Assembly (NCBI GenBank): GCA_003518105.1
Contig: DOZH01000005.1
Span: 40,513-104,512 of the forward strand
Direction: 5' to 3'
DNA length: 64,000 nt
DNA from: Candidatus Uhrbacteria bacterium
GTDB lineage: Bacteria; Patescibacteriota; Patescibacteriia; UBA9934
Shown: positions 4,479-60,225 of the stretch, piece after piece
How positions within the stretch are numbered: position 1 is the first letter of the stretch
Layout of the letters: each line of letters begins with the position of its first letter
The notes under the pieces: model-generated
Seen by the model: only the letters and a program-made list of their open reading frames with translations
The model's database searches: none
Told to the model about the DNA's origin: nothing
Program-made: the position numbers and the translations under genes

Positions 4479-5333
4479 TTATTTATCACCTCTAAATTTC
4501 TTCAACAACTTCATATCCTCTTCCCTGTTCCCCGGCTCCTCTTCATCATCAAACGGCGTTTCAAGAATCAGGTCAATATGCTTTAACTTCGGGTGCTCAA
4601 CCAAATATTTAAATGCATCCGCGCCAATAAAGCCATGTCCTAAATGCTGGTGCCTATCTTTATGTGCCTCAAATTCCACCTTACTATCATTACAATGACT
4701 CGCCACTAACTTATCGAGCCCAATAATCCTATCAAAATCAGCAAAAGTTTTGTCGACGTCGGCCTTGGTCCGCAAATCATAACCACTAGCAAAAGCATGT
4801 TGCGTATCAAAACACACGCCAATCTTCTTACCCCGCTCAGCACCAGCAATAAACGCCGCAATTTCTTCGAACGAATCACCCATTACCGCCCCAGCGCCGG
4901 CACTTATTTCGATGAGTAACTGGCAACTACCCGTATACCCATCCATTATTCGGTCGAGGCCCTTAATCACCAACTCCCTCCCCTCCTCCTCACCAACTTC
5001 CTTAGCACTCCCCGGATGAAACATGATCGCCTTCGCTCCTAACTGCGAGCCTCTTTCTAATTCCTCCCGCAAAATCTTCACACTCCCAAACCGCGTTGTA
5101 TTCTTCGCACTCGCCAAATTCACAATATACGGCGCATGAATATACACGTCCTTAATCCCATTCTCTTTCATCGCATTTTTGAACATCTCAGCCTCCTCGT
5201 CCGTAATCGGCTTAGCCGCAAACGCCTGTGGGGACCTCGAAAATATCTGTATCACCTCGCACCCCAACTCCTTCCCTCTTTCTCCCGCCTTCCACAACCC
5301 TCCCGCCGCACTAACATGAGCCCCAAAGCGCAT
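4479..5333 (-). CDS. nfo: Deoxyribonuclease IV (AP endonuclease family 2)
   Basis: MRFGAHVSAAGGL...EVIQIFSRSPQ...HAPYIVNLAS...HCNDSK, typical Nfo. Confidence 0.85.
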   Translation of the reverse strand: MRFGAHVSAAGGLWKAGERGKELGCEVIQIFSRSPQAFAAKPITDEEAEMFKNAMKENGIKDVYIHAPYIVNLASAKNTTRFGSVKILREELERGSQLGAKAIMFHPGSAKEVGEEEGRELVIKGLDRIMDGYTGSCQLLIEISAGAGAVMGDSFEEIAAFIAGAERGKKIGVCFDTQHAFASGYDLRTKADVDKTFADFDRIIGLDKLVASHCNDSKVEFEAHKDRHQHLGHGFIGADAFKYLVEHPKLKHIDLILETPFDDEEEPGNREEDMKLLKKFRGDK

Positions 5334-6548: not shown

Positions 6549-7319
6549 TTACCTCCCCGCAAACTCCCAAGCCATCGCAAAAATCGACCTCTGCGTTTCG
6601 TACATCGCCCCGTCATGAATCAATATCCCACCATACGGCGACTTGTGGGACATTATTGCCACCTTGCCGTCATAAATTTTAATCTCATTCGGCATCGCAT
6701 AAGTCTTCGGTACCAACCTCACCTCACGCAATTCTTCTCTACTAGCTTCGAAAAACTTTTTGCCTACATTTCCCTCATTTAATATCGCTTGCGTCCTCAC
6801 CCCAGCCGCCGTTCGCCTAGCAATATAATCACTGTAGTATTCCTTTAAGTTAGCCACCACTAAATCCGCATCACCAAAAGTTAAAATAGTTTCCTTAGCC
6901 GTTAGCGTATCCTCGAGCACCGTTTTCACCCCCTCAATTCCCGGGTAATACTGCACTCTTGGCTGCTTGGACGACACCCGTCCGGACAACGCCCGTAAAT
7001 CTGGCAATGTCTTTCGCAGGTCCTCGACACTTCTCTCCGCCTGTTTCAATAACAAGTCCGGCTCTTTAGCATAGAACAACTGCGTGCCATTTGTCTCGGT
7101 GGATCCCACCAACCCCCGCTTTTCCATCGCCTTCAATCCAACGTAAGTAGTGGACCTATTCATGCCCGTCTTCCTAGCAATCACACTGGCCGGCGCCTCC
7201 CCCAAAGCAGTACAGGCCACATATAAATCCGCCTCAGTCTGACTCAGGCCGACATTTTTGAGCGTCTCAGTGTATGCAATAGCCATAGTTGTTATATATA
7301 GTAACAGTATATAACTCAA
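6549..7319 (-). CDS. TrmB-family HTH transcriptional regulator (paralog 2)
   Basis: LKNVGLSQTEADLYVACTALGEAPASVIARKTGMNRSTTYVGLKAMEKRGLV. Probable true start is the ATG at 7286 (MAIAYTE). Confidence 0.75.
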   Translation of the reverse strand: MSYILLLYITTMAIAYTETLKNVGLSQTEADLYVACTALGEAPASVIARKTGMNRSTTYVGLKAMEKRGLVGSTETNGTQLFYAKEPDLLLKQAERSVEDLRKTLPDLRALSGRVSSKQPRVQYYPGIEGVKTVLEDTLTAKETILTFGDADLVVANLKEYYSDYIARRTAAGVRTQAILNEGNVGKKFFEASREELREVRLVPKTYAMPNEIKIYDGKVAIMSHKSPYGGILIHDGAMYETQRSIFAMAWEFAGR

Positions 7320-7369: not shown

Positions 7370-7398
7370 ATTGAAATTAACACTAAAATATGGTATAG
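7370..7398 (+). promoter_or_regulatory. sigma70-like promoter of cargo operon 2
   Basis: TTGAAA, 17-nt spacer, TATAGT. Confidence 0.45.
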
Positions 7399-7476
7399 TA
7401 CTTTGTCGAGTGAGAGCGCTTCTGCTCACACTCGGCCCCACCACCCATCGCCGACAACCTCGGTACGGAGATTCAC

Positions 7477-7947
7477 ATGGACGCTTCCCTTACTTCCATT
7501 CTCGCCCCCGAAGCCCTCATGATCGACGGTGACGCACCGCCAGTCGAGCCCTACTGGGCACAACTCGGCAAGACAGTGCAAATGCCATGCGGCCAGGTTG
7601 ATCCTGCAACCCTTGTCTTCTTCCAGACAGAGGAGATGAAGAACGGTGATAGCACCCCTGGTCTCGACCTGTCGGACAAGATCCGCCAGGCCAAGCTCAA
7701 GCCTGTCAACGCCAACGTCGCCGTATTCCTTGAGGCCCATCAGGAGTTTCTGGCTAGCGTGCCGAGGGGAATCGATTACCTGGTTTTCACAGAATCGCAA
7801 TTCCTCCGCTGGAACAACCTTCCGTCCTTCCAGTGCTTGCGCCGATGGAAAGACGGGCGATGGTACCCCTTCGACTACATCACCTGGCAAAGATACGGTG
7901 GCGAGGACGCTGCCGTGGCCTTCCGAGTCGACGAACCCACCAAGTAG
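7477..7947 (+). CDS. Hypothetical protein, family A copy 1
   Basis: 156 aa. Paralog of 8616..9062: shared LMIDGDAxPxVEPxWA, PCGQVDP, LFQTEEMK and identical C-terminus VAFRVDEPTK. GGAGATTCACATG ribosome-binding context. Confidence 0.6.
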   Translation: MDASLTSILAPEALMIDGDAPPVEPYWAQLGKTVQMPCGQVDPATLVFFQTEEMKNGDSTPGLDLSDKIRQAKLKPVNANVAVFLEAHQEFLASVPRGIDYLVFTESQFLRWNNLPSFQCLRRWKDGRWYPFDYITWQRYGGEDAAVAFRVDEPTK

Positions 7948-7953
7948 GCCTCT

Positions 7954-8040
7954 GCGTGAGGGTCGAGTAGTGCACTCTACTCCCCTCGCGCCCCCTTCCG
8001 AGGCGTCGAATTATCGACGTTTCAGATCCGGTCAACCACT
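7954..8040 (+). promoter_or_regulatory. Intercistronic double-hairpin element, copy 1
   Basis: GCGTGAGGG-TC-GAGTAG-tgcact-CTACTC-C-CCTCGCGC, then CCCCTTCCGAGG, then CGTCGA-atta-TCGACG, then TTTCAGATCCGGTCAACCAC. Confidence 0.7.
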
Positions 8041-8068
8041 ACGCCGACAACTTCGGCACGGAGACAAC

Positions 8069-8490: not shown

Positions 8491-8508
8491 ATTAGTGAAC
8501 AAACCCTC

Positions 8509-8600
8509 GCGTGAGGATCAAATGCTGCACCGCATTCTCCTCGCGCCCCCTTCCGAGGCGTCGAATAGTTCGACGTTTCAGATCTGGCCAACCACCCCAC
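8509..8600 (+). promoter_or_regulatory. Intercistronic double-hairpin element, copy 2
   Basis: GCGTGAGGA-TCA-AATGC-tgcacc-GCATT-C-TCCTCGCGC (compensated GAGGA/TCCTC), then CGTCGAA-tag-TTCGACG, then TTTCAGATCTGGCCAACCAC. Confidence 0.7.
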
Positions 8601-8615: not shown

Positions 8616-9062
8616 ATGCTTACCAACCTCATGATCGACGGTGACGCGGCCCCAGAAGTCGAGCCTAACTGGGCTGTGGCTAGCAAGACCGCACACACTC
8701 CTTGCGGTCAGGTAGATCCCACCAAACTCATCTTATTCCAGACGGAAGAGATGAAAAGAGGTGGTCGTTCTGAGGGCACAGTGCTTTCTGACCTGGCTTG
8801 CCAGGCTGGGCTCAACCCCATGAACGCCAATGGGGCCACCTTCCTCAAGAGGCACAAAAAGTTCCTAGCCAAGGTTCCGAAGACGATCAAGTATCTGATT
8901 TTTCCAGAGACGAAATACTTCTGCGGAAATGGATTCTGGTTCTTTCTGTGCCTAGACAGGAGTGCTACCGGGAAGTGGGAATTCAAGCTGAATCGCATCG
9001 TCAACAGCTACTGCGGTCAGTGCGCAATCGTGGCTTTCCGAGTCGACGAACCCACCAAGTAA
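8616..9062 (+). CDS. Hypothetical protein, family A copy 2
   Basis: 148 aa from the ATG after GGAGTTTCT. Paralog of 7477..7947. Confidence 0.6.
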   Translation: MLTNLMIDGDAAPEVEPNWAVASKTAHTPCGQVDPTKLILFQTEEMKRGGRSEGTVLSDLACQAGLNPMNANGATFLKRHKKFLAKVPKTIKYLIFPETKYFCGNGFWFFLCLDRSATGKWEFKLNRIVNSYCGQCAIVAFRVDEPTK

Positions 9063-9068
9063 GCCCCT

Positions 9069-9155
9069 GCGTGAGGGTCGAGTGTTGCACCACACTCCCC
9101 TCGCGCCCCTTTCTGAGACGCCGAATAGTTCGACGTTTCAGATCTGGTCAACCAC
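9069..9155 (+). promoter_or_regulatory. Intercistronic double-hairpin element, copy 3
   Basis: GCGTGAGGGTC-GAGTGT-tgcacc-ACACTC-CCCTCGCGC, then CGCCGAA-tag-TTCGACG, then TTTCAGATCTGGTCAACCAC. Confidence 0.7.
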
Positions 9156-9185
9156 CACGCCGACATGATCGGCACGGAGCACATC

Positions 9186-9494
9186 ATGAAAATTCGTACT
9201 GAAGCTGGTAAGGCCTACAAGTTGGTCGCCGGTGATCGCCTGCGCATCATCGATCGCTCGGATTGCGGCTACGGTTCGTTCAATCTGGAGCTGGAATCGG
9301 CTGTACGCGGCCGTCTTCACTTCATTGAGGATTACGGACCGAACAACTACAGGCGAACCAATGCTCTCTTCTTTTCAGGAGATTGCAGGAACCAGGTTGT
9401 CGACCTCATCTGTTACCTGTCTCACTTGAGCATCGCTCGTCGAGACACCAGCAGTGAGGCGTGCGATTACCTCGAGCTCGCTGCGAGCAAGTGA
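9186..9494 (+). CDS. Hypothetical protein
   Basis: ORF open from 9165. The ATG at 9186 follows CGGCACGGAGCACATC, as in sister genes. 102 aa (MKIRTEAGKAYKLVAGDRLRIID...). Confidence 0.5.
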   Translation: MKIRTEAGKAYKLVAGDRLRIIDRSDCGYGSFNLELESAVRGRLHFIEDYGPNNYRRTNALFFSGDCRNQVVDLICYLSHLSIARRDTSSEACDYLELAASK

Positions 9495-9500
9495 GCCCCT

Positions 9501-9585
9501 GCGTGAGGGTCGAGTGCTGCACCGCACTTCCCTCGCGCCCCTTTCCAAGTCGTGGATTATCGACGCTTTGGATTCGGTCTTCAAC
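9501..9585 (+). promoter_or_regulatory. Intercistronic double-hairpin element, copy 4
   Basis: GCGTGAGGGTC-GAGTGC-tgcacc-GCACTT-CCCTCGCGC. The second hairpin is weakened (GTCG...CGAC). Confidence 0.65.
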
Positions 9586-9598
9586 TAACAAACCAAAT

Positions 9599-11779: not shown

Positions 11780-11870
11780 GGCGTGAGCGTTAAGAAGATT
11801 CCCGTAGACTTCTCAGCTCTCGCGCCCCCTTCCGAGCTGGCGAATAATCGTCATCTCGGAATCGCAACAT
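11780..11870 (+). promoter_or_regulatory. Intercistronic double-hairpin element, copy 5 (divergent)
   Basis: GGCGTGAG...AGAAG-attcccgtaga-CTTCT...CTCGCGCC, then CCCTTCCGAG...CTCGGAA. Same lower stem and CCCTTCCGAG box, different upper stem. Confidence 0.6.
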
Positions 11871-19008: not shown

Positions 19009-19025
19009 ACCGTGTCTAAACTATC

Positions 19026-19100
19026 AGGACGACGTCGAACATCGTCCTTATCAATGTTTGCAGGCCTAGGACGACTCCCGATGTCGTCCTTTGCACTTTT
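19026..19100. repeat. Double-hairpin REP-like element (AGGACGAC...GTCGTCCT family), copy 1
   Basis: AGGACGACgtcgaacaTCGTCCT + TATCAATGTTTGCAGGCCT + AGGACGACtcccgatGTCGTCCT + TTGCACTTTT. Abuts the stop codon of the HD gene. Confidence 0.7.
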
Positions 19101-28095: not shown

Positions 28096-28115
28096 TAATC
28101 TGTGGACAAACACCC

Positions 28116-28150
28116 AGGACGACGCGAGACGTCGTCCTTTGCATTTCCAT
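28116..28150. repeat. AGGACGAC...GTCGTCCT hairpin element, single-hairpin copy
   Basis: AGGACGACgcgagaCGTCGTCCT + TTGCATTTCC, directly after the recombinase gene. Confidence 0.6.
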
Positions 28151-28168: not shown

Positions 28169-29389
28169 ATGAAAAAACCTCACATTGTAATTGTCGGCGG
28201 CGGGTTCGGCGGGCTAGAGGTCGCCTGGGGCCTGCGTGGCCAAGTCAAACAAGGAAAAATCGCCGTCACGCTCATCAACATCACCAACTATTTTCTCTTT
28301 ACTCCCCTCTTGCACGAAGTCGCAACTGGCGGTCTCAGTGCCGCTAGCGTTGCCGAGCCTCTCCGTGAAGTCTTCGCCCACACCGGCCTCAATATAATCC
28401 AAGGCGAGGTCACCAAGGTCGACGCCGACAAGAAGGCCGTCTTCCTCGGCCATCACACCATTCCCTACGACGTCCTGGTTCTCTCAACTGGTGCCACCAC
28501 CAACTACTTCAATACTCCAGGCGCCGCGGAGTTTGCCCTCCCCCTCAAAACTCTCGCCGACGCCACTGCCATCCGCGCTCGCATCATCGACGCCTTCGAA
28601 ACCGCCTCACTCGTCACTACCGCTGCCGAACGCAAGGAACTCCTCTCCTTCGTCGTGGTCGGTGCTGGTGCCACCGGTGTCGAGCTCGCCGCCGAACTCG
28701 CCGAATTTGCTTTTCACATTGCCCGCCGCTATTTTTGCCAAAAAAATAGCTGTATTCTGCATAACGAAGTTTCTGTCACGCTCGTTAGTGCTGGTCCCGA
28801 ACTCCTCGCCCAGTTCTCCCCGCCAACTCGTAAGGCGGCTGAAGCTCGTTTAAAAAAGCTCGGCGTCAAACTCCGCTTGGGCGTGCAAGTCGGCGAGGTC
28901 GACGCAACTGGCGTCAACATGAACGACGGTTGGCGCATCCCCTCTGGCCTCACTATCTGGACCGCTGGCGTTAAAGCAGTCCTTCCATTGATTGTTGATA
29001 GCTCTGGCACCAAGGTAGCCAAAGCTCAGCTTTGGTCGCAAGCAAAAAAGCCAGCTGAGCTGGTCATCCTCGGCGACGCCGCTGCTGGCCTCCCCATGCT
29101 GGCCCAAGTCGCTGTTGCTCAAGGCCGTTCCGTGGCCAATAATATTGTTCTCCTCCTGGCTAGCCGTCCTCTCCTCCCATTTGTCTATCACTCCCGCGGC
29201 TCCTTCGTCTCCCTCGGTCAATGGTTCGCCGCTGGCACCATCGGTCGTATAAATTTGAGCGGTCGCCTCACCTGGTGGCTTTGGCGCACCGTCTATCTCT
29301 TCAAATTTGCCAGCCACAAAAAGCGCCTCCGCATTGTCTTCGAGTGGACGCTGAACCTCTTCTATCCCCGTGACATCACGCGCCTCTAA
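28169..29389 (+). CDS. Type II NADH dehydrogenase-like FAD-dependent oxidoreductase
   Basis: N-terminal dinucleotide fold IVIVGGGFGGLEVA and a second fold VVVGAGATGVELAAELA. Confidence 0.8.
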   Translation: MKKPHIVIVGGGFGGLEVAWGLRGQVKQGKIAVTLINITNYFLFTPLLHEVATGGLSAASVAEPLREVFAHTGLNIIQGEVTKVDADKKAVFLGHHTIPYDVLVLSTGATTNYFNTPGAAEFALPLKTLADATAIRARIIDAFETASLVTTAAERKELLSFVVVGAGATGVELAAELAEFAFHIARRYFCQKNSCILHNEVSVTLVSAGPELLAQFSPPTRKAAEARLKKLGVKLRLGVQVGEVDATGVNMNDGWRIPSGLTIWTAGVKAVLPLIVDSSGTKVAKAQLWSQAKKPAELVILGDAAAGLPMLAQVAVAQGRSVANNIVLLLASRPLLPFVYHSRGSFVSLGQWFAAGTIGRINLSGRLTWWLWRTVYLFKFASHKKRLRIVFEWTLNLFYPRDITRL

Positions 29390-34502: not shown

Positions 34503-35279
34503 ATGATTACCAACACCGAGGTGAAACAAAATCTTTACACTTCCCTCAAGGAACTCGGTCTCACCGAGAGCGAAGCCAACCTCTACCTCACCTCCTTAAC
34601 CCTCGGCTCCGTCACCATCGTCTCTTTAGCCGAGCATCTCAGCATGCCCAGGCCCAACGTCTACAAAGTCATTGCCGGGCTGGAAAAGCACGGTTTAACT
34701 AAGTTTTCCGAACGTAAAAAGCAATCTCGCACTTTTGTAGTGGAGCCGCCAACCGTCGTCCTGGAACTATTACGCCGTAAACGCGAAGCCATGGCCAGCT
34801 TGGACCAAACCCTCGTCGGTTCCATGCCAGACCTGCTCGCGCTCTACCATCAAGGCGAAACCCCCACCAAAATCAAAGTTTACGAGGGGGAGGACCAGTG
34901 GAATAAAATTTTCTTTAAAGTTCTGGACGAAGCTAAAGATAAAATCGACTTCTTTGGTTCCGCCGACGCTTTCATCGGCCTCATCTCCTGGGAAACCGAA
35001 CTCGAATGGATCCGCCTCCGCACCAGCAAAAACATTCACATGAATTCCCTCCTCACCCCCGGCGCCGACGCTGCCACGCTCGTTCAAAACGACAAACTCC
35101 AAATGCGCACCACGCGCATCTTCCAAGGCACCCTCCCCTTCGTCACCGGCTTCATGCTCTACGCCAACAAGGTAATCATCTGGCAGCCCAAAGCCCCCCT
35201 CGCCGTCCTCGTGGAAGATGAATACATCGTGGCCATGCTCCGCAGCATCTTCGCCGCACTGTGGACACAAAGTGCATAA
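34503..35279 (+). CDS. TrmB-family HTH transcriptional regulator (paralog 4)
   Basis: LKELGLTESEANLYLTSLTLGSVTIVSLAEHLSMPRPNVYKVIAGLEKHGL. Confidence 0.75.
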   Translation: MITNTEVKQNLYTSLKELGLTESEANLYLTSLTLGSVTIVSLAEHLSMPRPNVYKVIAGLEKHGLTKFSERKKQSRTFVVEPPTVVLELLRRKREAMASLDQTLVGSMPDLLALYHQGETPTKIKVYEGEDQWNKIFFKVLDEAKDKIDFFGSADAFIGLISWETELEWIRLRTSKNIHMNSLLTPGADAATLVQNDKLQMRTTRIFQGTLPFVTGFMLYANKVIIWQPKAPLAVLVEDEYIVAMLRSIFAALWTQSA

Positions 35280-35285
35280 ACTCTC

Positions 35286-35360
35286 AGGACGACTTCGGGA
35301 GTCGTCCTGGGCCTGCAAACATTGATAAGGACGACGTTCGACGTCGTCCTTTGCACTTTT
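35286..35360. repeat. Double-hairpin REP-like element, copy 3 (core inverted)
   Basis: AGGACGACttcgggaGTCGTCCT + GGGCCTGCAAACATTGATA + AGGACGACgttcgaCGTCGTCCT + TTGCACTTTT. The spacer is the reverse complement of that in copies 1 and 4. Confidence 0.7.
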
Positions 35361-43328: not shown

Positions 43329-45983
43329 ATGACATCATCTTCTCCCGCCAAAACTTTCCTTATTCTCGACGGCAATGCCCTGCTCCATCGCGCTTGGCAC
43401 GCCATTCCACCACTCACCACCAAAGACGGCCGCGTAGTCAACGCTGTTTACGGCTTCATCATGGTTATTGAAAAAATGCTCAGTCAACTTAAGCCCGACT
43501 ACATGGCCGTCGCCTGGGACTTGCCTGGCAAAACCTTCCGTCATGACGAATACGTTGAATACAAGTCACAGCGCGAAAAAAAGGCCCCAGAACTCTACGC
43601 TCAAATCCCCATGATTCAAGAGGTTCTCAAAGCCTATCACCTCCCATCACTTTCGGTCCCCGGCTTTGAAGGCGACGACATTTTGGGCACCATCGCTACG
43701 CTCAACAAACCACTCGGTATCAAGACCCTTATCGTCACCGGCGACCTTGATGCTCTCCAGCTAGTCGACGACACCACGCACGTCGTCTTCTTCGTCAAAG
43801 GCCTCTCCCAAACCACGCTTTACGACACTGCTGCGGTGGAGGCTCGCTATCACCTCCGACCTAACCAACTTATCGACTACAAAACACTCATCGGCGACCA
43901 TTCCGACAATCTCCCTGGTGTAGCTGGCATTGGTGAAAAGTCCGCCCTCGAACTCATCCAGCAATTCGGCACGGTCGACGGTATCTTCGCCAATCTCGAG
44001 ACCGGCATGGTTCCTTCCAAGTACGCTAAGAAGCTCACCGGCAAGCAGGACGTGGCCAAACAAATGAAGCGCCTCGTCACCATCGTCCGCAACGTCCCAC
44101 TCGACAATTTCGACGTCACTCAGGCCGTCGTTCAACCTCCACACCTCGATGATCTCATTCCCCTTCTCCAAGATCTCGAGTTCCACACCATCCTCAAAAA
44201 GTACCTCCCAGCCACAGCCGAACCCATAAGCCCTCCCCCAGCCATGGGGGAGTTGGAGGGGGCCGTTAAGGTGCCAGCAATAGTTCGTGCGCCAAAAACT
44301 TCGCTCGCCAAACTCGGCGCACTTTCCGATCTTAAAACCGAAAAACTCGCCATTCTCCTCACCAACAAAATCCAACAAGATCTCTTCAGCACCGGCGGCC
44401 TCGCAAGCATTGCCCTCACCGACGGCGAAACCACCTTCATTGCCGAATCGCCGACCCCAGAAGTCATGGCTGACATCGTCAAACTATTATCGACCGCCAA
44501 TCTCATCATCGCCCACGACCTCAAGGCTATCTGGCACACTTTCGCCAAGGCCAGCGTCGACGTCACCTCAGCACTCAATCGTCCTTGTTTTGACACCATG
44601 GTTGCTGCCTACCTCCTCTCTTCCGGCGAACGAGCCATGGCCTTCGCCGACATTGTCCGCGAAACTCTGCACTCCGAGCTGACTGACGACGTTGTCTCGA
44701 CCCTCAGTATTCTTCTCACCTTGTCGATCGCTCTCCAAGCCAAGCTCGCCCACGTTGGCATGACTAAACTCTCCACCGAGATAGAAATGCCGCTCATCGG
44801 CGTCCTCTTCCAAATGGAGCACACCGGTATCGCCGTGGATAGCTCCATTCTGCAAGAACTCTCCAAAAAATTCGCCATTACTCTCGCCAACTTAACCACC
44901 AAGATCTACGCCGCGGCCGGGAAAGAATTCAACATCCAGTCCCCTTCGCAGTTAGCCGACATTCTCTACGTCGACCTCGCTATTCCCACCAAAGGCATCA
45001 AAAAAACCAAGAGCGGCTTCAGTACTGCCGCCCCCGAACTCGAAAAAATAACCGCTCTTCACCCTATCGTCGCCCTCATCGGCGAGTACCGCGAAATCGC
45101 CAAGCTCAAAAACACCTACGCCGATTCCCTTCCTCTCCTCGTTGGTGCCGACGGTCGTATTCACGCCGAGTTCAACCAGTGTATCGCCGCCACCGGTCGT
45201 CTCTCATCATCAAACCCGAATCTGCAGAATATTCCTGTTCGTTCCGAGCTCGGCCGTGAAATCCGCAAAGCCTTCGTTGCCCCTGCCGGTCGTATCCTCG
45301 TCAGCGCCGACTATTCGCAAATCGAATTACGCTTGGCTGCTGTTCTCGCTAAGGACACGGGTTTCATCACCGCCTTCCGGGACAACGCCGACATTCACAA
45401 ACGCACCGCTGCCGAAATGTGGGGCATCCCCGAGGCCGAGGTGACCAAAGAACAGCGTTACGCCGCTAAAGCTATCAACTTCGGCATTCTCTATGGCATC
45501 GGTGCCCGCGCCTTAGCACGTTCATCGAAGGTGAGCTTCGAAGAAGCGAAAGGGTTTATAGACCTCTACTTCCAAGCCCACCCCGGCATTCGTGGCTTCA
45601 TAGATGCCATGAAGGCCAAGGCCCACGCCGACGAATACGTGGAAACTCTCTACGGCCGCCGTCGTTATCTGCCAGAAATCAACGGCAATATGCCCCAGCT
45701 GGTCGCCATGGCCGAACGAATGGCTATCAACATGCCAGCTCAGGGCACGCAAGCCGATATCATCAAAATCGCCATGCGTCGTGTACAAGATTGGCTCACC
45801 ACCTCTGGCCTCACAGCGACGCTTCTCCTCCAGGTTCACGACGAACTTGTCCTGGAAGCGGACCTAGTCGACGTCCCCGTAGTCTCGCAAAAAGTTCAAG
45901 AAATCATGACCTCAGTCATCACCCTCGACGTCCCTCTCTTGGTCGACGTGGAAACCGGCACTAACTGGGGAGATCTAAAATAA
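43329..45983 (+). CDS. polA: DNA polymerase I
   Basis: 5'-nuclease N-terminus (LILDGNALLHRAWHA), polymerase motifs DYSQIELRLAA and LLQVHDELVLE. 884 aa. Confidence 0.95.
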   Translation: MTSSSPAKTFLILDGNALLHRAWHAIPPLTTKDGRVVNAVYGFIMVIEKMLSQLKPDYMAVAWDLPGKTFRHDEYVEYKSQREKKAPELYAQIPMIQEVLKAYHLPSLSVPGFEGDDILGTIATLNKPLGIKTLIVTGDLDALQLVDDTTHVVFFVKGLSQTTLYDTAAVEARYHLRPNQLIDYKTLIGDHSDNLPGVAGIGEKSALELIQQFGTVDGIFANLETGMVPSKYAKKLTGKQDVAKQMKRLVTIVRNVPLDNFDVTQAVVQPPHLDDLIPLLQDLEFHTILKKYLPATAEPISPPPAMGELEGAVKVPAIVRAPKTSLAKLGALSDLKTEKLAILLTNKIQQDLFSTGGLASIALTDGETTFIAESPTPEVMADIVKLLSTANLIIAHDLKAIWHTFAKASVDVTSALNRPCFDTMVAAYLLSSGERAMAFADIVRETLHSELTDDVVSTLSILLTLSIALQAKLAHVGMTKLSTEIEMPLIGVLFQMEHTGIAVDSSILQELSKKFAITLANLTTKIYAAAGKEFNIQSPSQLADILYVDLAIPTKGIKKTKSGFSTAAPELEKITALHPIVALIGEYREIAKLKNTYADSLPLLVGADGRIHAEFNQCIAATGRLSSSNPNLQNIPVRSELGREIRKAFVAPAGRILVSADYSQIELRLAAVLAKDTGFITAFRDNADIHKRTAAEMWGIPEAEVTKEQRYAAKAINFGILYGIGARALARSSKVSFEEAKGFIDLYFQAHPGIRGFIDAMKAKAHADEYVETLYGRRRYLPEINGNMPQLVAMAERMAINMPAQGTQADIIKIAMRRVQDWLTTSGLTATLLLQVHDELVLEADLVDVPVVSQKVQEIMTSVITLDVPLLVDVETGTNWGDLK
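44231..44270 (+). repeat. In-frame mini-palindromic repeat (PPAMGE element) inside polA
   Basis: CCCTCCCCCAGCCATGGGGGAGTTGGAGGGGGCCGTTAAG. Near-identical copies at 46728 and 60185. Hairpin CTCCCCCA/TGGGGGAG. Confidence 0.75.
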
Positions 45984-45988
45984 CTCAA

Positions 45989-46063
45989 AGGACGACTTCG
46001 GGAGTCGTCCTAATCAATGTTTGCAGGCCAAGGACGACTTTCGATGTCGTCCTTGTGTTTTGT
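45989..46063. repeat. Double-hairpin REP-like element, copy 4
   Basis: AGGACGACttcgggaGTCGTCCT + AATCAATGTTTGCAGGCCA + AGGACGACtttcgatGTCGTCCT + TGTGTTTTG, directly after polA. Confidence 0.7.
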
Positions 46064-46607: not shown

Positions 46608-47600
46608 ATGATCATCTTTATCTACGGCGACGACGGCCCTCGTCTCAAAACAAAACTTTTGCAATTAACCACCCAATTTACCACTAAATTTGATACTACC
46701 GGCCTCAATCTAGCCTCTTTTTACAACTCTCCCCCAGCTATGGGGGAGTTGGTGGGGGCTTTAACTTACCCCGACGTGCTCCAGGCTGTCATGAGCTCAC
46801 CATTTCTCAGTGAGAAGCGCATGGTCATCGTCCACAATCTCATGGACGGCCTCAAAAAGGACGACGCTATTATGTGGGCCGATGGCCTCGCTAAAACCCC
46901 CTCGTCAACCATTCTTGTCCTCGTTGATAACCTCGACCCAACCAAAGTCGAGAAACACGAGCTCTTCAAGCGCCTTAAAGATGGTGCCGAGGTTCACACC
47001 TACGCCGAAGTTAAACGTGAAGGAGCAGCTCTTTATTCCTGGCTTATCGACGAGGCCAAAAAACAAGGTGCTCAACTCAGCTTATCAGTGGCTACAGATC
47101 TCGCCACCCGTGTTGGTGACGACGCCTGGCAGCTGCAAAACGAGTTGGCCAAAGTGGTCGCCTACGCCAACGGTGCGGCTATCACCACCACCATGCTCGA
47201 CCTACTCGTCCAAAGCTCCAGCGAGTCCAACATTTTCGCCTTCGTGGATGCTATTAGCCAACGAGACGCTAAAAACGCCCTCCGCCTGCTGGCTACTGAA
47301 CGGGCCGCTGGTTCCGTCGACTTCTACCTCTTAACCATGCTCGCTCGCCAAATTCGCATTCTCCTCCAAATCTGCGTCCTCCTCGCGGACGAGCCAGGTG
47401 CTGCCGCCGACGTCGCTAAACGCCTATCTTTACACCCCTTTGTGGCCGGCAAGGCTACCTCCCAAGCCAAGCGCTTCACCCTCCTCCAGCTCCTCAATCT
47501 CCATCAGCTCCTCGTTAAACTCGACCACGACGCCAAAACAGGCGGCCTCGACGCTGGCCTGGCTGTGGACCGACTTGTCGCCGAAATGCTAGCTATTTAG
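46608..47600 (+). CDS. holA: DNA polymerase III subunit delta
   Basis: MIIFIYGDDGPRLKTKLLQL... with the typical HolA layout. The ORF-track start at 46143 runs through the upstream gene; the ATG at 46608 is preferred. Confidence 0.75.
   Translation: MIIFIYGDDGPRLKTKLLQLTTQFTTKFDTTGLNLASFYNSPPAMGELVGALTYPDVLQAVMSSPFLSEKRMVIVHNLMDGLKKDDAIMWADGLAKTPSSTILVLVDNLDPTKVEKHELFKRLKDGAEVHTYAEVKREGAALYSWLIDEAKKQGAQLSLSVATDLATRVGDDAWQLQNELAKVVAYANGAAITTTMLDLLVQSSSESNIFAFVDAISQRDAKNALRLLATERAAGSVDFYLLTMLARQIRILLQICVLLADEPGAAADVAKRLSLHPFVAGKATSQAKRFTLLQLLNLHQLLVKLDHDAKTGGLDAGLAVDRLVAEMLAI
46728..46768 (+). repeat. In-frame mini-palindromic repeat (PPAMGE element) inside holA
   Basis: CTCTCCCCCAGCTATGGGGGAGTTGGTGGGGGCTTTAACTT, encoding SPPAMGELVGALT. 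Confidence 0.75.
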
Positions 47601-51708: not shown

Positions 51709-51807
51709 CCCGAGCTCAGCTCGGTTGTCGGTATGCGCCCAAAGCTCAGCTTTGGTAATTCGACAACTAGCTTGCTGCTGAGCGAAGGGTGAGTCAGCTC
51801 AGCTGAC
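51709..51807. repeat. AGCTSAGCT hairpin repeat cluster (non-coding copy of the element found inside two surface-protein genes)
   Basis: CGAGC-tca-GCTCG, CCAAAGC-tca-GCTTTGG, GTCAGC-tca-GCTGAC. The reverse complement of 51709-51765 aligns with 60085-60135 and 55408-55460. Confidence 0.65.
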
Positions 51808-54541: not shown

Positions 54542-57082
54542 GTGAGGCAGTTTTTTTTAACCTTGCGTGCAACTTTTTTTATCATACTCGGAGGAGTGTG
54601 CATTTTGCATTCAGCCAATATTACCCAAGCCGCCACCGTGACAGATCTCTACGATCAGCCTTCGTCGCTCGTCATTTCCGCCGCCTCAAATCATAAATTT
54701 GTCTTCGTTCCAGCTAGCAATATCAGTGGCGGCAGCACCTTAACTTTCACCTTTGCCTCACAATTTACTACCACCAGTATCACCGAAGACGACGTCGACA
54801 TCGCCGACGATGGCGTAGACCTCACCACGGCCGTCAACTGCGCTGGTGCCGACCAAGCCTCAATCGCCATGGCCGGTAACATTTTAACCATCACCATTTG
54901 TGCTGGCAACGGTGGCGACATTGCACTTGGAAGTTCGGTTACTGTCGAGGTTGGCACCAACGCCTCGGCCTCAGGTAGCGGCACAAATCAAATCACTAAC
55001 CCTAGTACTGCCGCCACCTATTACATCACCTTAGGTGGTACCTTCGGCGACTCCGGTTCGATTCCATTGCCCTTTGTTACCAGCAATAGCGGCGGCGTTT
55101 CTGGTACCTTCACGGCTCCCAGTAGTGATAACGGTAATAATGGTTGCGGCGCTTGCGGTGGCGATCCAACCCCAACTCCCACACCCGACCCAACTCCAGT
55201 TCCAGATATTCCACCCGTCGAACCCACCCCAGAACCAACCCCAACACCTGAACCTACACCCACTCCGACCCCAGAACCAATCCCTACACCAACTCCCACC
55301 CCAGCGCCCGACTCAACCCCAACTCCAACCTCAGGCTCAACGCCTTCCTCGGGTTCGACGCCAACAACGACTCCCACCGAACCAACAACCCCACCTACTG
55401 AACCAATCACCGAGCCAAGTCAAAGTCCAGATTTGACCGCAAATCCACCAATCGAGCTCAGCTCGACCACCGCCACTCTTATCGTCGACGGCGGCCTTAC
55501 GCTCACCCCCGACGGAACTACTTTCTCTACTCTCGCTGGCACCCCCTCCACTATCAGCGTCACCCTAGATGAATCTACTCCAGTCACGGAAGCTCGTGTC
55601 ATCATCGACCATGTTGCCTACGTTTTAGTAGCCAACAATAGCTCGTACACAGCCAACATCGTGCTACCATCCGCCGACACCGCCCTCACCATTCAAGCCG
55701 ACCATACTGACGGTACTACGTCGACCTCATCCTACACCCTCAACGTCCAGGGCGGCGGCATGGTTTACGAAGTCGTCAATAAATCATGGGTGCCAGTTAG
55801 CGGCGCTATGGTTACGGTCTATCAAACTAGCGGCGGCTCGCATACAGCCTGGAATGCCTCAGCCTACGACTCCATCAATCCAGTCATCGTTGGCAGTAGT
55901 GGCGCCTATTCTTTCTACGTTCCGAACGGCACTTATCAAATCACCGCCAGTCACCTCGGTTTTCAAGAGGGAACTAGTCCCACAATCACAGTTACTAATC
56001 ACATCCTTACTACCTCGATCGAACTTAAACGAACAACGATTGCGCCAATTTCTCCTGCACCAACCGGTGCTATAAATATCGCAGTCGCCGCGGTCACCAC
56101 GCAGCTCGACGTCATTCGTGATATTCCGGCAGTCCAAGTTGCCACCTCAATTGCTACCCCCGCCACGGCCGTACTTGCCGCTACCTCAGCCGTTGCCTTG
56201 GCCTCCTCCTTCAGCCTTCTTCCATACCTCCAATACCTCTTCACCGCACCCTTCCTCTTCTTTGCTCGCCGTAAGCGTAAAGCTTTCGGTACCGTCTATA
56301 ATGCCGCCACCAAACTTCCAGTGGACCTCGCTATCATTCGTCTCTTTTCAAGTCCCGAGCATAAACTAATCCGCAGTGTCGTCACCAACCAAAAAGGTGA
56401 GTATTTGTTATCCGTCGCCGCCGGCACTTACACTATTGAAGTTCTAAAGCAAAATTTCTCCTTCCCAAGTGCCATCCTACAAGGCAAAAAAGACGATGGT
56501 GCATTCCTCGACGTCTACACTGGCCAAATCATCACCGTTTCTGATCAAGAAGCTACCATTGCCGCTAACATTCCGCTCGATCCTGCTGGCGCTGCTTCAC
56601 TCGCCACGCCACGTCATGCCGCCCTCATTCGCCTATTCCGCGTTGCCCAACAGGTCGTAGCTATTGCCGGCATAGTTCTGTCTATTGTTGTGCTCATCAT
56701 CGCGCCAACAATATTCACCACCATCATGTGCGTGGTGCAAATAATCGTCTATCTTTTAGTCCGTCGTTTGGCTCGTGTCCGCAAACCAAAAGGTTGGGGC
56801 ATTGTTTACGACGAGGTGACTAAGCAGCCTGTGAGTAACACCGTCGTCAGATTGTTCGAGCCCGTGTATAATAAACTCATCGAAACGGTTTTAACGGATC
56901 GCTTCGGTCGCTACGCTTTTCTTGTTGGGCCAAGTCAGTATTACGTCAGCTATAGTAAACCTGGTTACACCGAGAAATTGGTGCGACCAATTGACTTTAG
57001 CACCCGCACCGAGCCAACCGCTCTAGCGCTTGATGTACCACTAGCCGAAGCCGCAGAAGTTGTAGTCAAAACGGAGGTATGA
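54542..57082 (+). CDS. Large surface protein: signal peptide, Pro/Thr linker, CarboxypepD_reg-like repeats, several TM segments
   Basis: [30 protein letters not shown] linker. Two repeats of type GxVYxxxTKxPVxxxxxRLF. Hydrophobic segments near residues 560-590 and 700-740. Confidence 0.65.
55408..55460 (+). repeat. AGCTSAGCT double-hairpin element, in-frame copy inside the 846-aa gene
   Basis: AGTCAAAGTCCAGATTTGACCGCAAATCCACCAATCGAGCTCAGCTCGACC, encoding [17 protein letters not shown]. Confidence 0.6.
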
Positions 57083-60000
57083 TGACTCGTGCCGCATTTC
57101 ATCTGCGACGATTCTTAGCTAGCTCCATGCTGGCCATCTTGTTGTTTTCAGGCCTCTTCGGTTTTACACTTTCTCAAGTCAACGCCGCCTCAGCCCCAAA
57201 CATTCTCAACTATCAAGGCCGCCTATTGAACGCGAACGGCGTACCGATCAGTGCTGCCTCGGCTAGCATGACCTTCGCGCTCTACACCGTGCTCGCCACT
57301 GGCAGCCCCGGTGACGCCGAATGTGTCTGGACTAATAGTAGCAGCAGTGGTTTTTCAGCGACGACTCGTACAGTAACCTTAACCGATGGCCTCTTTAGCG
57401 AAAACTTGGGTGACACCGCCGCTGGCACTCCCTATGCGGCTATCACTGATTCAATTTTTTCTAATAATGCCAATCTCTACCTAGAAATTACCATCAACGG
57501 TGAAATGCTCACTCCTCGCAAACAAATCGTCTCCGCTCCGTACGCCATGAACTCGGACACCCTCGACGGCTTCGACAGCACGCAAGCCGGCGGTACCACG
57601 GCCGCCACTCTCGTCCTCAACAGTTCTGGCAACCTCCAGCTCACCGGTAATCCAAGCGGTTCCACTATCAGCAGCGGTTCGCTTTATATTAATCCAGCTA
57701 CTGGCGACGTGGCTGCCAACGACGTTCTCTTTGGCATTGCTGTCACCGGTACCACAAAATTTTCTCTCGACGCCGAGGGCGACACTATCGCTACGGGCGA
57801 CCTCGCGGTTAATGGGGGGGACTTCACAACTAGTGCTACCACCTTCAATTTGCTCACCACCACCGCTACCACGCTCAGCTTCGCCTCAGCCGCCACTACC
57901 CTCAATATCAACAACGCAGCTGGCGTCTCCACCAAAACCATCAACATTGGTGGCACTTCTGCCGACAGTCCCAATGCCATCAACATCGCCACCGAAGGCA
58001 CCCAAGCCGACACCATCATCATCGGCAACAATAACGCGTCGACTCTGATGACCTTAACTGGTGGTAATGACTGGTCAATCGACAACGCTGGTATTATTAC
58101 GACAACTGGCAATATTACAACAGCTGGCGACGTCGCTGTTAACGGCGGTGGAATCACCTCGACAGACACTCTTGATATTTCCTCATCAAGCAGCAATATT
58201 TCATTGTCAGCAAGCGGCAGCGGATCGGGTATGGTCTACGTTACAGCGGGCGACAATTTTGCTGTCGGCGGTATCACAGACGCTGTTCCTTTCTCAGTAA
58301 CCGAAGCCACCAATTCGGTGCGCATCGGTGACGGAGCAAGTGATAGCAATGATCCAGCGATCAGATTCTTTGCTTCCGATGCTTCAGACGACGGCACCCT
58401 CAAATATGCAGACACTGATGCTTTCGAATTCTTTGGTGGCGACCTCGTCCATACTGCTATCGCTACTACAACCTTCGGTCAGCATTTTGTTAATGACTCA
58501 ATCACGAGCGGGGTCGGCATGTCTATCAGCCGTGCTGATGGCGTGACAGACTTTACAGGCGCCTTGCTCAGTATTGCTCAGAATGATACCAGTACTACCA
58601 GCACGGGCAATGCTTTAGTAGTTGTCCAAGACGCTAATAATACTAGTTGCGTCGCCGGTCCTTGCGCTAAAGGCCTTTTCATTGCTCAAGCCCACACTAC
58701 AGCCCACATCGCTGACGACCCAGGGGGGAGCGCTCTTGCTATCGACATAGGTGAAGCAGGCAGTACCGACGACGCCATTGTTCTTCGAGCTGGTCCTGCT
58801 ACAACTTTCCGTGTGACTACCGAAGGTAATGCCTACGCCGACGGTGCCTTTACTGGTGGTGGCGCTGACTTGGCTGAGTATTTTCCCACCTCCAACACTA
58901 GTCTCGGCAGTGGTCAAATAGTTTGCCAAGATACAGTGAATAAAAATCAAGTTACGCAGTGTATTAACAGTCAGTACGCTCCGATCGGTGTAGTTTCAGA
59001 CAATCCTGCCTTTATCGGTAATCTCATAGGTGATGCTTCTGAAGATCTGCGCCACAACCCTAATTATAGTCTCGTCGGTTTGCTCGGTCAGATCGACACC
59101 TTGGTCGACGACAGCAGGGGAGTCATCAACATCGGTGACCCCATCACGGCCTCGTCAGCTACCAGCGGCTACGGCGCCAAAGCTATCGGCGCTGGTCGCA
59201 TTGTCGGTTACGCCCTCGAACCTCTCTCATCCACCACCGGCACTATCCGCGTGCTCGTCCAACCACAATGGTTCGGCGGTACAGTAGCGGCTCCAGCCCC
59301 TGCCACCTCGGCCGAAGTTGTCGCTGCTAACCCAGTTGTTATCGCCGATAATTCCGTTTCTGGCTTAACCAACACCTCTGTTCTCGACGTCGACGGTTCG
59401 CTCAACATGAACGGCGGTCGTATTCTATCCGTCTCATCATTGCAGGGTCTCGGTGGTAACTGGCACCTGGCCGAGAACGGTGACTTCACTACCCACGGTC
59501 AATTCATTGGCTTGGTCAATGGCTACAGCGGCGCCCCAGTCGAGACTTATGCCACGATGAGTCGCCAGCATCTCATTCAACTCTCCGGCACTGCTACCCT
59601 CCAAAACGGCATCGCTCACGTTCTCTTCGTAGACGTCGACCCTCAGTTCGCCGACGTTATCAGTAACACCTCACCTTACCGCGTCATCGCCACGCCTTCT
59701 GGTCTCACTGGCCAAATCTACATCAGCGAACGCACTCTCACTGGCTTCACCATCCGCGACATCAATAACTCAAACGGCGTCGAGGTTGACTGGTTAGTTA
59801 TGGCCTATAATAAAGACTTCTCCCCAGACTCGGTCATCACTGTGCCTGTTGTTGAGCCAGTTATCGGTAATGCTCCACCCGCCTCTGCTCCATCAGTCGA
59901 GCCATCTGCTGACACCACTGCTCCCCTCACCGAACCAGCTATCATCGATCCTCAAGTTGATGCTTTAGTAGTCGCCGAAGACCCGGTTATTACCACCGAA

Positions 60001-60207
60001 CCGGTCATTACGCCCGACCCAGTTGCCGACGCTCCCGTTATTGCCGAGCCAGTCTCGACTCCTGACCCAGCCGTTACCGAGTCAAGCCAAAGCTCAGCTT
60101 TGGCCGCAAATCCAACAAGCGAGCTGAGCTCGCCCGAGCCTGTAGCCGAAGCTGCACCAGTAGTCGAGCCATCACCCGCAAACCCTCCTCCAGCTATGGG
60201 GGAGTAG
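57079..60207 (+). CDS. Giant secreted protein (1042 aa), fibre/adhesin-like
   Basis: Signal peptide (LASSMLAILLFSGLFGFTLSQVNA), long Thr/Ser/Gly/Ala-rich repeats, ADLAEYFP...GDPITAS C-terminal domain, Pro-rich tail. ATGA overlap with the upstream gene. Confidence 0.65.
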   Translation: MMTRAAFHLRRFLASSMLAILLFSGLFGFTLSQVNAASAPNILNYQGRLLNANGVPISAASASMTFALYTVLATGSPGDAECVWTNSSSSGFSATTRTVTLTDGLFSENLGDTAAGTPYAAITDSIFSNNANLYLEITINGEMLTPRKQIVSAPYAMNSDTLDGFDSTQAGGTTAATLVLNSSGNLQLTGNPSGSTISSGSLYINPATGDVAANDVLFGIAVTGTTKFSLDAEGDTIATGDLAVNGGDFTTSATTFNLLTTTATTLSFASAATTLNINNAAGVSTKTINIGGTSADSPNAINIATEGTQADTIIIGNNNASTLMTLTGGNDWSIDNAGIITTTGNITTAGDVAVNGGGITSTDTLDISSSSSNISLSASGSGSGMVYVTAGDNFAVGGITDAVPFSVTEATNSVRIGDGASDSNDPAIRFFASDASDDGTLKYADTDAFEFFGGDLVHTAIATTTFGQHFVNDSITSGVGMSISRADGVTDFTGALLSIAQNDTSTTSTGNALVVVQDANNTSCVAGPCAKGLFIAQAHTTAHIADDPGGSALAIDIGEAGSTDDAIVLRAGPATTFRVTTEGNAYADGAFTGGGADLAEYFPTSNTSLGSGQIVCQDTVNKNQVTQCINSQYAPIGVVSDNPAFIGNLIGDASEDLRHNPNYSLVGLLGQIDTLVDDSRGVINIGDPITASSATSGYGAKAIGAGRIVGYALEPLSSTTGTIRVLVQPQWFGGTVAAPAPATSAEVVAANPVVIADNSVSGLTNTSVLDVDGSLNMNGGRILSVSSLQGLGGNWHLAENGDFTTHGQFIGLVNGYSGAPVETYATMSRQHLIQLSGTATLQNGIAHVLFVDVDPQFADVISNTSPYRVIATPSGLTGQIYISERTLTGFTIRDINNSNGVEVDWLVMAYNKDFSPDSVITVPVVEPVIGNAPPASAPSVEPSADTTAPLTEPAIIDPQVDALVVAEDPVITTEPVITPDPVADAPVIAEPVSTPDPAVTESSQSSALAANPTSELSSPEPVAEAAPVVEPSPANPPPAMGE
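60085..60135 (+). repeat. AGCTSAGCT double-hairpin element, in-frame copy inside the 1042-aa gene
   Basis: GCCAAAGCTCAGCTTTGGCCGCAAATCCAACAAGCGAGCTGAGCTCGCC, encoding SQSSALAANPTSELSSP. Confidence 0.6.
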
Positions 60208-60225
60208 GAGGGGGCTTTAACTTAT
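60185..60225 (+). repeat. PPAMGE mini-palindromic repeat at the 3' end of the 1042-aa gene
   Basis: CTCCTCCAGCTATGGGGGAGTAGGAGGGGGCTTTAACTTAT. It contains the gene's TAG stop and ends at the next gene's ATG. Confidence 0.75.

Follow-up and report, generated by a model that had tools for sequence, protein, structure and literature searches.

Short DNA repeats that combine a C-rich arm, a loop of 3-6 nt, a complementary G-rich arm, a second loop of 3 nt and a mirror G-rich arm, with T allowed to face A, are known from Proteobacteria or Cyanobacteria, and this architecture was named BoxC, later PIT elements (Hoyne and Maher 2000, 2002, cited in PMC4666352) and then TM_ECO (Holder et al. 2015, PMC4666352). 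The TM_ECO consensus is CCCTCNCCC-N3-6-GGGNGAGGG-N3-GGGNGAGGG, the second loop being TTA or CCG, and E. coli K-12 has 23 copies that are "always intergenic", lie on both strands and include five inverted pairs made of two subtypes (PMC4666352). TM_ECO oligonucleotides form a very stable triplex by circular dichroism and nuclear magnetic resonance (NMR), the latter excluding a G-quadruplex, and RNA forms no purine-motif triplexes (PMC4666352). In E. coli, the PIT/TM_ECO elements are without promoter or terminator activity and without transposon association, their loci vary more than control intergenic sites, on which the authors speculate about an adaptive role, strains carry from 1 to 29 copies, and their spread and function are left unexplained (PMC4666352). 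Salmonella is without TM_ECO, and 143 are present in Enterobacter asburiae LF7a. Here, we analyzed a stretch of 64,000 nt from Candidatus Uhrbacteria bacterium (assembly GCA_003518105.1, contig DOZH01000005.1, positions 40,513 to 104,512), hereafter called the window, in which three copies of a repeat of this architecture were found inside polA, inside the DNA polymerase III delta gene holA and at the 3′ end of the gene for a 1042-aa protein. The evidence presented below makes it probable that these copies are solo intrastrand triplex motifs (TMs) of the BoxC/PIT/TM_ECO kind, that is, selfish and non-autonomous repeats acting at the DNA level, filtered by reading frame where they lie in genes, with a DUF559 nuclease as their presumptive agent.

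Searching the window with the consensus CCAGCYATGGGGGAGTWGGWGGGGGC gave exactly three matches, at 44238-44263, 46734-46759 and 60190-60215 and all on the plus strand, and no match in 100 dinucleotide shuffles of the window; the three near-identical sites pointed out in a preliminary description of this DNA were thereby confirmed. Once aligned with their flanks, the copies share a conserved span of about 44 nt each (Table 1). An ITxF-like scan for perfect triplex motifs of seven triads recovered the polA and holA copies and found none in 30 Markov resamples of the window. In the terms of the ITxF class II purine motif (stem of 6-15 nt, loop 1 of 3-6 nt, short loop 2), the stem CTCCCCC(A)/(T)GGGGGAG comprises 7-8 bp in copies 1 and 2 and has one mismatch in copy 3, loop 1 is GCYA and has 4 nt, which become 6 nt when the A-T closing pair is counted in, and the mirror arm is GAGGGGG or GTGGGGG in the window. 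The 8-bp hairpin CTCCCCCA/TGGGGGAG with a 4-nt loop, which the preliminary description ascribed to the repeat, is the predicted minimum-energy fold of the polA and holA copies; copy 3 has a C>T change in its C-arm, CTCCTCC.

Compared with TM_ECO, the repeat of the candidate phyla radiation (CPR) also occurs in multiple copies on both strands, forms inverted pairs of two subtypes, varies among close relatives and decays locally. The differences lie in the stems, which have 7(-8) triads (CTCCCCC/GGGGGAG/GAGGGGG) instead of the nine of CCCTCNCCC/GGGNGAGGG/GGGNGAGGG, so that the window copies with their different 7-nt stems do not match the strict TM_ECO consensus; in loop 2, which is TTA, CCG, TTG, CTG or others; in the hosts, which are Patescibacteria; in the third arms, which face outward in the CPR doublets and inward in the E. 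coli pairs; and in location, as about two thirds of the CPR copies are intragenic and translated, in contrast to the always intergenic ones of E. coli. Our literature search found no report of palindromic or in-frame/triplex-type repeats in CPR or within genes. Judged by sequence, the repeat would be a member of the BoxC/PIT/TM class in which CPR hosts, seven-triad stems and mostly intragenic, translated copies are new. The kind as such was described before and is no new category, although the TM_ECO study does not report intragenic translated copies (PMC4666352).

Evidence for a joint constraint on the three arms came from the comparison of subtypes, by which the second G-arm was seen to mirror the first. 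Type A reads CTCCCCC-A-GCYA-T-GGGGGAG-NNN-GAGGGGG and type B reads CCCCTCC-A-GYYA-T-GGAGGGG-NNN-GGGGAGG, and from one to the other the T of the C-arm, the A of the first G-arm and the A of the second G-arm shift jointly. Extra variants were taken from a metagenome scan that considered the hairpin only and was blind to the third arm; its matches are diluted by chance and coding matches, and it serves for new variants, not for counting. A separate family with 11 triads, CCCTCTCCCCC/GGGGGAGAGGG/GGG(A/T)GAGGGGG, was also present in metagenomes. Among the matches listed for all loci, a perfect mirror arm followed 104 hairpins and a direct repeat followed none, 30 distinct stem triples obeyed the three-way relation, and the turn (loop 2) measured 3 nt in 107 of 119 motifs. 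The third-arm base facing A, counted in these matches with only the G positions constrained, was A in 102 cases, T in 77, C in 3 and G in 1, i.e. A or T in 179/183. The antiparallel purine-motif triplex is built of G·G-C, A·A-T and T·A-T triads, and the three-way relation bears the signature of an intrastrand triplex of this motif. The window unit appears from these comparisons to be a three-segment intrastrand triplex motif, beyond a simple palindrome; of the palindrome with a G-rich arm appended that had been proposed before, the hairpin stands, and the G-rich arm is read here as the mirror of the hairpin G-arm.

We also considered whether the C-arm could pair instead with the third arm in a Watson-Crick hairpin. 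Such a hairpin would comprise just 5-6 bp, and third-arm A>T variants such as GTGGGGG of the holA copy break its pairing, so that it was rejected and the mirror (triplex) relation preferred.

A scan with the core pattern of 185,579 species genomes, one genome per species, yielded 26 loci, among which 25 true copies were distributed over seven assemblies of Uhrbacteria, the "Patescibacteria group" and allied metagenome-assembled genomes (MAGs). Two of the seven bear the label "uncultured Gammaproteobacteria", and one of these, CAYFME01, has a PolA 61% identical to that of the window. Inverted doublets, in which a minus-strand type B motif and a plus-strand type A motif are 13-15 nt apart, were found in the CAYFME01 loci, as in the two-subtype pairs of TM_ECO, and none in the window. 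For a census of 69 motifs, the true-copy loci, the window and a related groundwater family were combined: 44 motifs lay within open reading frames (ORFs), 25 in sense and 19 in antisense, 21 were intergenic and 4 were at gene ends. Thus the genome search and frame count that the preliminary description had called for brought up many further genic and intergenic copies in relatives. In terms of frame, 13 motifs were sense+1, 12 sense+2, 18 antisense+1 and 1 antisense+2, and sense+0 was never used (0/25, P = 6e-5). The sense+1 reading gives PPAMGE.EGA, sense+2 gives SPSYGG.GGG (SPSYGGxGGG) and antisense+1 gives APS.SPIAGG (APSxSPIAGG), and the frames that yield LPQLWGSWRG or a stop are avoided.

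Significant Pfam domain matches were obtained for 19 of 20 host ORFs tested, covering ATP synthase gamma, CCA/poly(A) polymerase, GT4 glycosyltransferases, a pyridine-nucleotide oxidoreductase, PGA_cap, FtsK, M50 peptidase, UvrC, SecA, Wzy_C, an epimerase, UDP-glucose dehydrogenase and a histidine kinase with the motif inside HATPase_c. With host families this diverse, replication genes are not special targets, and the emphasis formerly placed on two essential replication genes is not sustained. The repeat is a DNA-level dispersed repeat of Patescibacteria, of Uhrbacteria and their relatives. A conserved protein motif (PPAMGE...) common to several proteins, with nucleotide identity as a secondary matter, could account for the three window copies, which are all in one frame and give PPAMGE. 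The same DNA is read elsewhere in other frames or is intergenic, copy 3 holds a stop codon within the element, and none of 120 PolA homologues has an AMGE, SYGGxGGG or LPQLWG motif beyond the window's own sequence; by the multi-frame and intergenic copies the protein-motif explanation is refuted, and we give it practically no chance. Equally negligible is an assembly or sequencing artefact: every host is indeed a MAG or metagenome contig, but the identical PolA with its insert is present on 4 contigs across NCBI, JGI, ENA and Logan, the family recurs in independent assemblies from many studies, and the reading frames stay open through the repeat.

The census also bears on a device acting at the RNA level, in which the hairpin would hide or present the third-arm GGAGG as a ribosome-binding site, or would act as a terminator or attenuator. 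In copy 3 the 3-nt turn is the TAG stop of the 1042-aa ORF (60205-60207), which ends in PPAMGE, and the third-arm GGAGG (within 60207-60214) is 9-13 nt 5′ of the ATG of the next gene at 60224, for which it could serve as a Shine-Dalgarno sequence. TMs with AGGAGG-like arms also lie 10-70 nt 5′ of the DUF559 start codons described below, and the RNA hairpin of the 51-nt context is stable at −23 to −24 kcal/mol. Against such a device, intragenic copies are nearly balanced between sense and antisense (25 versus 19), most are in mid-gene, where a ribosome-binding site or terminator makes no sense, the mirror rule of A or T facing A is the rule of DNA purine-motif triplexes, which are absent in RNA, and PIT elements lack promoter and terminator activity in E. 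coli (PMC4666352). We regard an RNA-level role as the explanation of the repeat as very improbable.

Next, the polA and holA sites were compared with their orthologues. The window PolA matches a public "DNA polymerase I [Candidatus Uhrbacteria bacterium]" at 100%, and PPPAMGELEGAVK occupies its residues ~301-314, in the linker between the 5′-nuclease domains, which end at aa 271, and DNA_pol_A, which starts at aa 507; HolA, whose start (MIIFIYGDDG) was set from the alignment with relatives, carries SPPAMGELVGALT from copy 2. The peptides are those given by the preliminary description, and its linker placement agrees with these Pfam domain limits. Among 40 aligned PolA homologues, the segment is confined to the window and its 90% and 86% relatives, and the 85% relative and all more distant proteins have unrelated linkers of variable length. 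In the 90% relative (L027, polA linker ~5040-5110) a 27-nt insertion encoding GDGANTVALAGR lies in loop 1 and the G-arm and has destroyed the G-arm, which fits the local instability reported at triplex motifs. In the 86% relative (L028, 4106-4140), subtype B stands where the window has subtype A at 44231-44265, with six coordinated differences between otherwise conserved flanks; conversion from another copy is one possibility. The 85% relative (L029) was tried as a clean empty polA site and set aside, since its divergent linker, possibly a decayed relic, allows no element boundary to be read. In HolA, all three relatives lack the element and have 21-24 nt (IIGQDRAD and similar) where the window has 45 nt, so that the recent holA event replaced existing sequence and added 21 nt net. 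The element is accordingly lineage-specific in both genes and variable in presence among close relatives; the earlier picture of a lineage-specific, frame-preserving insert is borne out by the alignments except that the holA copy replaced existing sequence.

These orthologue data also concern the idea that the repeat is a host-beneficial genomic signal for replication, recombination, repair, uptake or local variability, kept by selection. The location of all three window copies on a single strand and the higher variability of TM_ECO loci with the adaptive role speculated for it (PMC4666352) would suit a signal, but fixed copies decay, as the destroyed G-arm of L027 shows, presence is patchy among close relatives, essential genes are a costly place for a signal, and copy number ranges widely among E. 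coli strains (PMC4666352). We consider this idea unlikely.

To look at insertion signatures, 19 singlets with an AACY left end were used and the left 5-mer was sought 0-7 nt to the right of the core. A flanking 5-mer repeat was found in 4/19 against 0.56 expected from cross-pairing, with 0-1 in shifted windows, and flanking 4-mers in 6 against 1.56 expected, among them the TTAC...TTAC at the holA copy. By their sequence, such flanking direct repeats may point to insertion at a staggered cut. Repeats that sit in frame within genes are known from Rickettsia, whose palindromic elements (RPEs) are AT-rich plain palindromes of ~100-150 bp restricted to that genus. Ogata et al. reportedly described them in 2000 as selfish repeats lying in frame within protein-coding genes, essential ones too, and we know of no triplex architecture or associated nuclease for them. 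The present repeat has in common with RPEs the in-frame habit alone, i.e. the location inside genes, also essential ones, with translation as an extra peptide in tolerant regions; size, sequence and host differ.

A candidate for the agent of spread emerged from genes next to the motifs. In locus L013 (1417-2391), the ORF of a SpoU/TrmH-type methylase stays open through an insert of ~450 nt that sits just before the conserved "ALVLGNE" segment and consists of a TM, an in-frame DUF559/REase_MTES_1575 domain (E = 7e-37) and a second TM. In the cassette, DUF559 stands between a minus-strand type A motif and a plus-strand type B motif; the doublets of the same genome are arranged alike, and their spacer, AGACTCCACG|TGTCA, agrees with the cassette's inner ends. 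In L072, another DUF559 gene with 48% identity to the first is bracketed likewise by two other subtypes. We then picked nine DUF559 loci by protein homology alone and examined their DNA afterwards; they came from Patescibacteria, Kerfeldbacteria, a 36%-GC Parcubacteria contig, a Bacteroidetes MAG and a contig with the E. coli-type motif. In all nine a TM was located 10-70 nt 5′ of the start codon and in 7/9 also at or just past the stop, and the other intergenic regions of these loci were essentially without TMs. The clearest terminal-inverted-repeat-like arrangement is that of the Bacteroidetes MAG (L171, 1417-1470 and 1905-1959), where a ~45-nt inverted repeat around the DUF559 gene consists of a TM and TGAGTCC(T/G)GGAC, and a TM_ECO-like form adjoins the DUF559 gene in L172.

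The association extends to E. coli, where ycjD is the sole DUF559 gene of K-12 and TM_ECO no. 9 is 168 nt downstream on the same strand (chance ~0.003). In L150 (E. coli K-12 1,344,000-1,354,000; ~7395-7425 and 7205-7240), the ycjD stop falls within a degenerate TM arm (CCCTCTCCC-TGA). The gene and its TM occur together or are jointly missing, both being present in 3346 of 5426 complete E. coli genomes, and the ycjD-negative genomes (38%) have the eef (eefRABC) efflux operon at the site. As a proxy for TM number, we counted the places matched by a query composed of the fabI-ycjD region and six TM variants, one place being the locus itself. In an evenly spread E. coli sample, the mean was 14 matched places with ycjD and 5 without (n = 37 vs 22; Mann-Whitney P = 6e-9, not phylogeny-corrected). 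TM-adjacent DUF559 proteins keep the invariant acidic residues of their family, D53, E64 and D66 (alignment A2). Their profile matches structure 3hrl at E = 6e-35 and, at E = 7e-6, structure 3r3p of the homing endonuclease I-Bth0305I. By this match they resemble the Vsr-like (EDxHD) homing endonucleases such as the mobile-intron enzyme I-Bth0305I; unlike those, the TM-adjacent DUF559 genes lie outside introns and inteins. Nothing was found in the literature that links DUF559 or ycjD to BoxC, triplex or other repeats, nor any DUF559/YcjD activity. Taken together, these data make a DUF559 nuclease a plausible partner enzyme of the TMs, though an unproven one, and the adjacency fits equally well a nuclease that mobilises the motifs and a nuclease gene that homes into motif doublets.

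In several respects this arrangement resembles that of repetitive extragenic palindromes (REPs) and REPINs with their RAYT (TnpA_REP) enzymes: both involve short GC-rich structured repeats as singlets and inverted doublets and a small single-copy nuclease gene amid repeat clusters, and in both the repeat number tracks the presence of the gene. REPs have a GTAG/CGTC tag at the hairpin foot (PMC3733652). They are extragenic hairpins associated with an HUH Y1 enzyme, whereas TMs are three-segmented, are accompanied by a PD-(D/E)xK DUF559 protein and have left flanks that are (T/C)AAC[CT] or family-specific, without GTAG/CGTC. With MITEs (miniature transposable elements with inverted repeats), TMs have in common that they are short and non-autonomous, that some copies have flanking direct repeats and that the doublets resemble internal-deletion derivatives of a gene-carrying element; TMs are far smaller (31-44 bp), their terminal inverted repeats reach 4 nt at most (TAAA/TTTA) and their right end is variable. 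We know of no transposase-encoding parent for TMs. These likenesses, namely small size, high GC, hairpin formation, REPIN-like inverted doublets in related genomes and weak 4-5-bp flanking direct repeats, are what an ordinary REP/MITE palindrome moved by a classical transposase (RAYT/IS200-like Y1 or DDE) would offer, with a G-rich tail that has no structural role. A plain hairpin has no need of a third arm that co-varies with it in 30 variants under an A/T-only rule among the matches listed, no GTAG/CGTC tag adjoins the hairpin, and DUF559 is the only recurrent neighbour. Among the Pfam-annotated genes of the DUF559 loci no transposase was seen, the sole exception being a phage-integrase-family gene ~460 nt from the DUF559 gene in L173. 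A transposase-driven palindrome is therefore decidedly unlikely.

A more serious competitor, though in our judgment still a rather doubtful one, is spread by gene conversion, illegitimate recombination and replication slippage without a dedicated enzyme, where DUF559 genes merely insert beside TMs as insertion sequences (IS) target REPs, a behavior that has been documented (PMC1525189). The replacement at holA agrees with it, the type A versus type B states of the polA site with their six coordinated changes suggest conversion, and the spacer that matches the inner ends of the cassette fits equally a DUF559 gene inserted into a doublet. What it leaves unexplained is how naive sites, with flanking direct repeats, were first reached, why TM matches are roughly threefold more numerous in ycjD-positive E. 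coli, and why, across distant phyla, TMs stand on both sides of DUF559 genes with alternating orientation.

Of the mechanisms considered, the one with the best support is a selfish DNA repeat that depends on its structure, with selection for tolerable peptides as its filter. The unit runs from a pyrimidine arm through a 4-6-nt loop, the complementary purine arm and a 3-nt turn to the mirror purine arm, and when the G-rich strand becomes single-stranded, it would fold into the hairpin with the third arm placed in the major groove by the triads named above; we infer that the motifs may fold into triplexes in vivo. Copies may arise at new sites, some with 4-5-bp flanking direct repeats and some replacing a few codons, intragenic ones would persist just in tolerant loops or linkers and in frames that give Pro/Ser/Gly/Ala-rich peptides, and fixed copies would later decay or be converted. 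The agent that cuts, spreads or maintains the motifs would presumably be a DUF559 (YcjD/Vsr-like PD-(D/E)xK) nuclease whose gene lies among inverted TMs at other places in such genomes. A wider proposal, to which we grant somewhat less than an even chance, is that intrastrand triplex repeats, BoxC/PIT/TM_ECO included, are non-autonomous partners of DUF559 (YcjD-type, Vsr-like) nucleases in a REP/RAYT-like or homing-like system that recognises the triplex-folding strand, so that the doublets would be internal-deletion derivatives and the polA and holA solos scattered offspring.

Several observations weigh against the triplex repeat and its proposed nuclease. Concerning the fold, 7-nt stems belong to a class that is also frequent in scrambled genomes, and in vivo dimethyl sulfate footprinting in E. 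coli showed no triplex (PMC4666352). The hairpin z-scores from RNA and DNA folding are modest (−0.3 to −2.6, by ViennaRNA, which does not model triplexes); C-rich and G-rich shuffles pair too, for which reason folding energies are not used as an argument. Concerning insertion, the 5-mer signal is weak, the right boundary varies, and the holA copy replaced 24 nt by 45 nt and is no clean insertion. Concerning the nuclease, no DUF559 gene was found in the 64-kb window or in three syntenic relatives, the TM orientation around DUF559 varies between (−)gene(+), (+)gene(−) and doublets, and a TM was nearby in 0-2 of 11 DUF559 loci on viral contigs (mostly 65-72% GC), which means that the TM link is not general to all DUF559. 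In E. coli, the ycjD/TM block is swapped for the eef operon and not cleanly absent, and the correlation between ycjD and TM count is confounded by phylogroup.

The G-rich strand is the plus strand for all three triplex motifs of the window. As a separate observation, the GC skew of the window is below zero in every 4-kb bin (−0.12 to −0.28). Other repeats are also present. A second family consists of single or paired GC hairpins, AGGACGAC-N7-GTCGTCCT, which are intergenic, occur in both orientations and look like shared terminator-type hairpins. A unit of ~96 nt with two hairpins occurs in four copies (7946-8041, 8501-8596, 9061-9156 and 9493-9588) at a spacing of 430-560 nt, and once as a partial copy (11819-11860). 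Small ORFs lie between the copies, and two of these ORFs are paralogues that share the ending AFRVDEPTK; Rfam gave no match to the unit at gathering score. A 60-nt stretch at 55409-55468 and 60076-60135, with 83% identity, is located in Pro/Thr-rich parts of the 846-aa and 1042-aa genes and contains two short palindromes, CCAAAGCTCAGCTTTGG and CGAGCTCAGCTCG, with similar palindromes at 29017-29041 and 51711-51761. At gathering thresholds, Rfam identified four tRNAs only in the window and gave no match at the repeats.

Table 1. Positions of the triplex motifs (TM), their parts, their host genes and the second hairpin family in the window
Feature	Position	Strand	Remarks
TM copy 1	44229..44272	+	inside polA; translated ..SPPPAMGELEGAVK..; flanks TAAG...TAAG
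Copy 1, pyrimidine arm CTCCCCC and closing A	44233..44240	+	
Copy 1, loop 1, GCCA	44241..44244	+	
Copy 1, closing T and purine arm GGGGGAG	44245..44252	+	Watson-Crick partner of the C-arm
Copy 1, 3-nt turn TTG	44253..44255	+	differs among copies
Copy 1, third arm GAGGGGG	44256..44262	+	mirror image of the purine arm
TM copy 2	46725..46768	+	inside holA; translated ..YNSPPAMGELVGALT...; flanks TTAC...TTAC
Copy 2, third arm GTGGGGG	46752-46758		has T at a position where A or T is due under the mirror rule
TM copy 3	60181..60224	+	3′ end of the 1042-aa gene
polA, 884 aa	43329..45983	+	host of copy 1; Pfam 5_3_exonuc_N, 5_3_exonuc, DNA_pol_A
holA (DNA polymerase III delta)	46608..47600	+	host of copy 2; Pfam DNA_pol3_delta, DNA_pol3_delta_C
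1042-aa secreted or surface-type protein	57079..60207	+	last 6 codons and stop within copy 3
Hairpins AGGACGAC-N7-GTCGTCCT	19019-19098, 28113-28146, 35279-35358, 45982-46061		last one directly 3′ of the polA stop

These findings extend triplex-type DNA repeats to the CPR, where they lie inside essential genes and are translated as Pro/Gly-rich loop insertions, an in-gene habit so far tied mainly to the Rickettsia palindromic elements, and annotators of CPR proteins will meet PPAMGE, SPSYGG or PSxSPIAGG segments. The stem variants provide natural covariation evidence for a joint purine-motif constraint on three arms, which the near-identical copies of E. coli cannot supply, and arguably make the strongest comparative case for a biological importance of the triplex fold. 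Moreover, the association with DUF559 supplies a concrete candidate, amenable to testing, for an enzyme responsible for the BoxC/PIT elements, and with it a possible function of the orphan E. coli gene ycjD, both questions that date from the 1990s.

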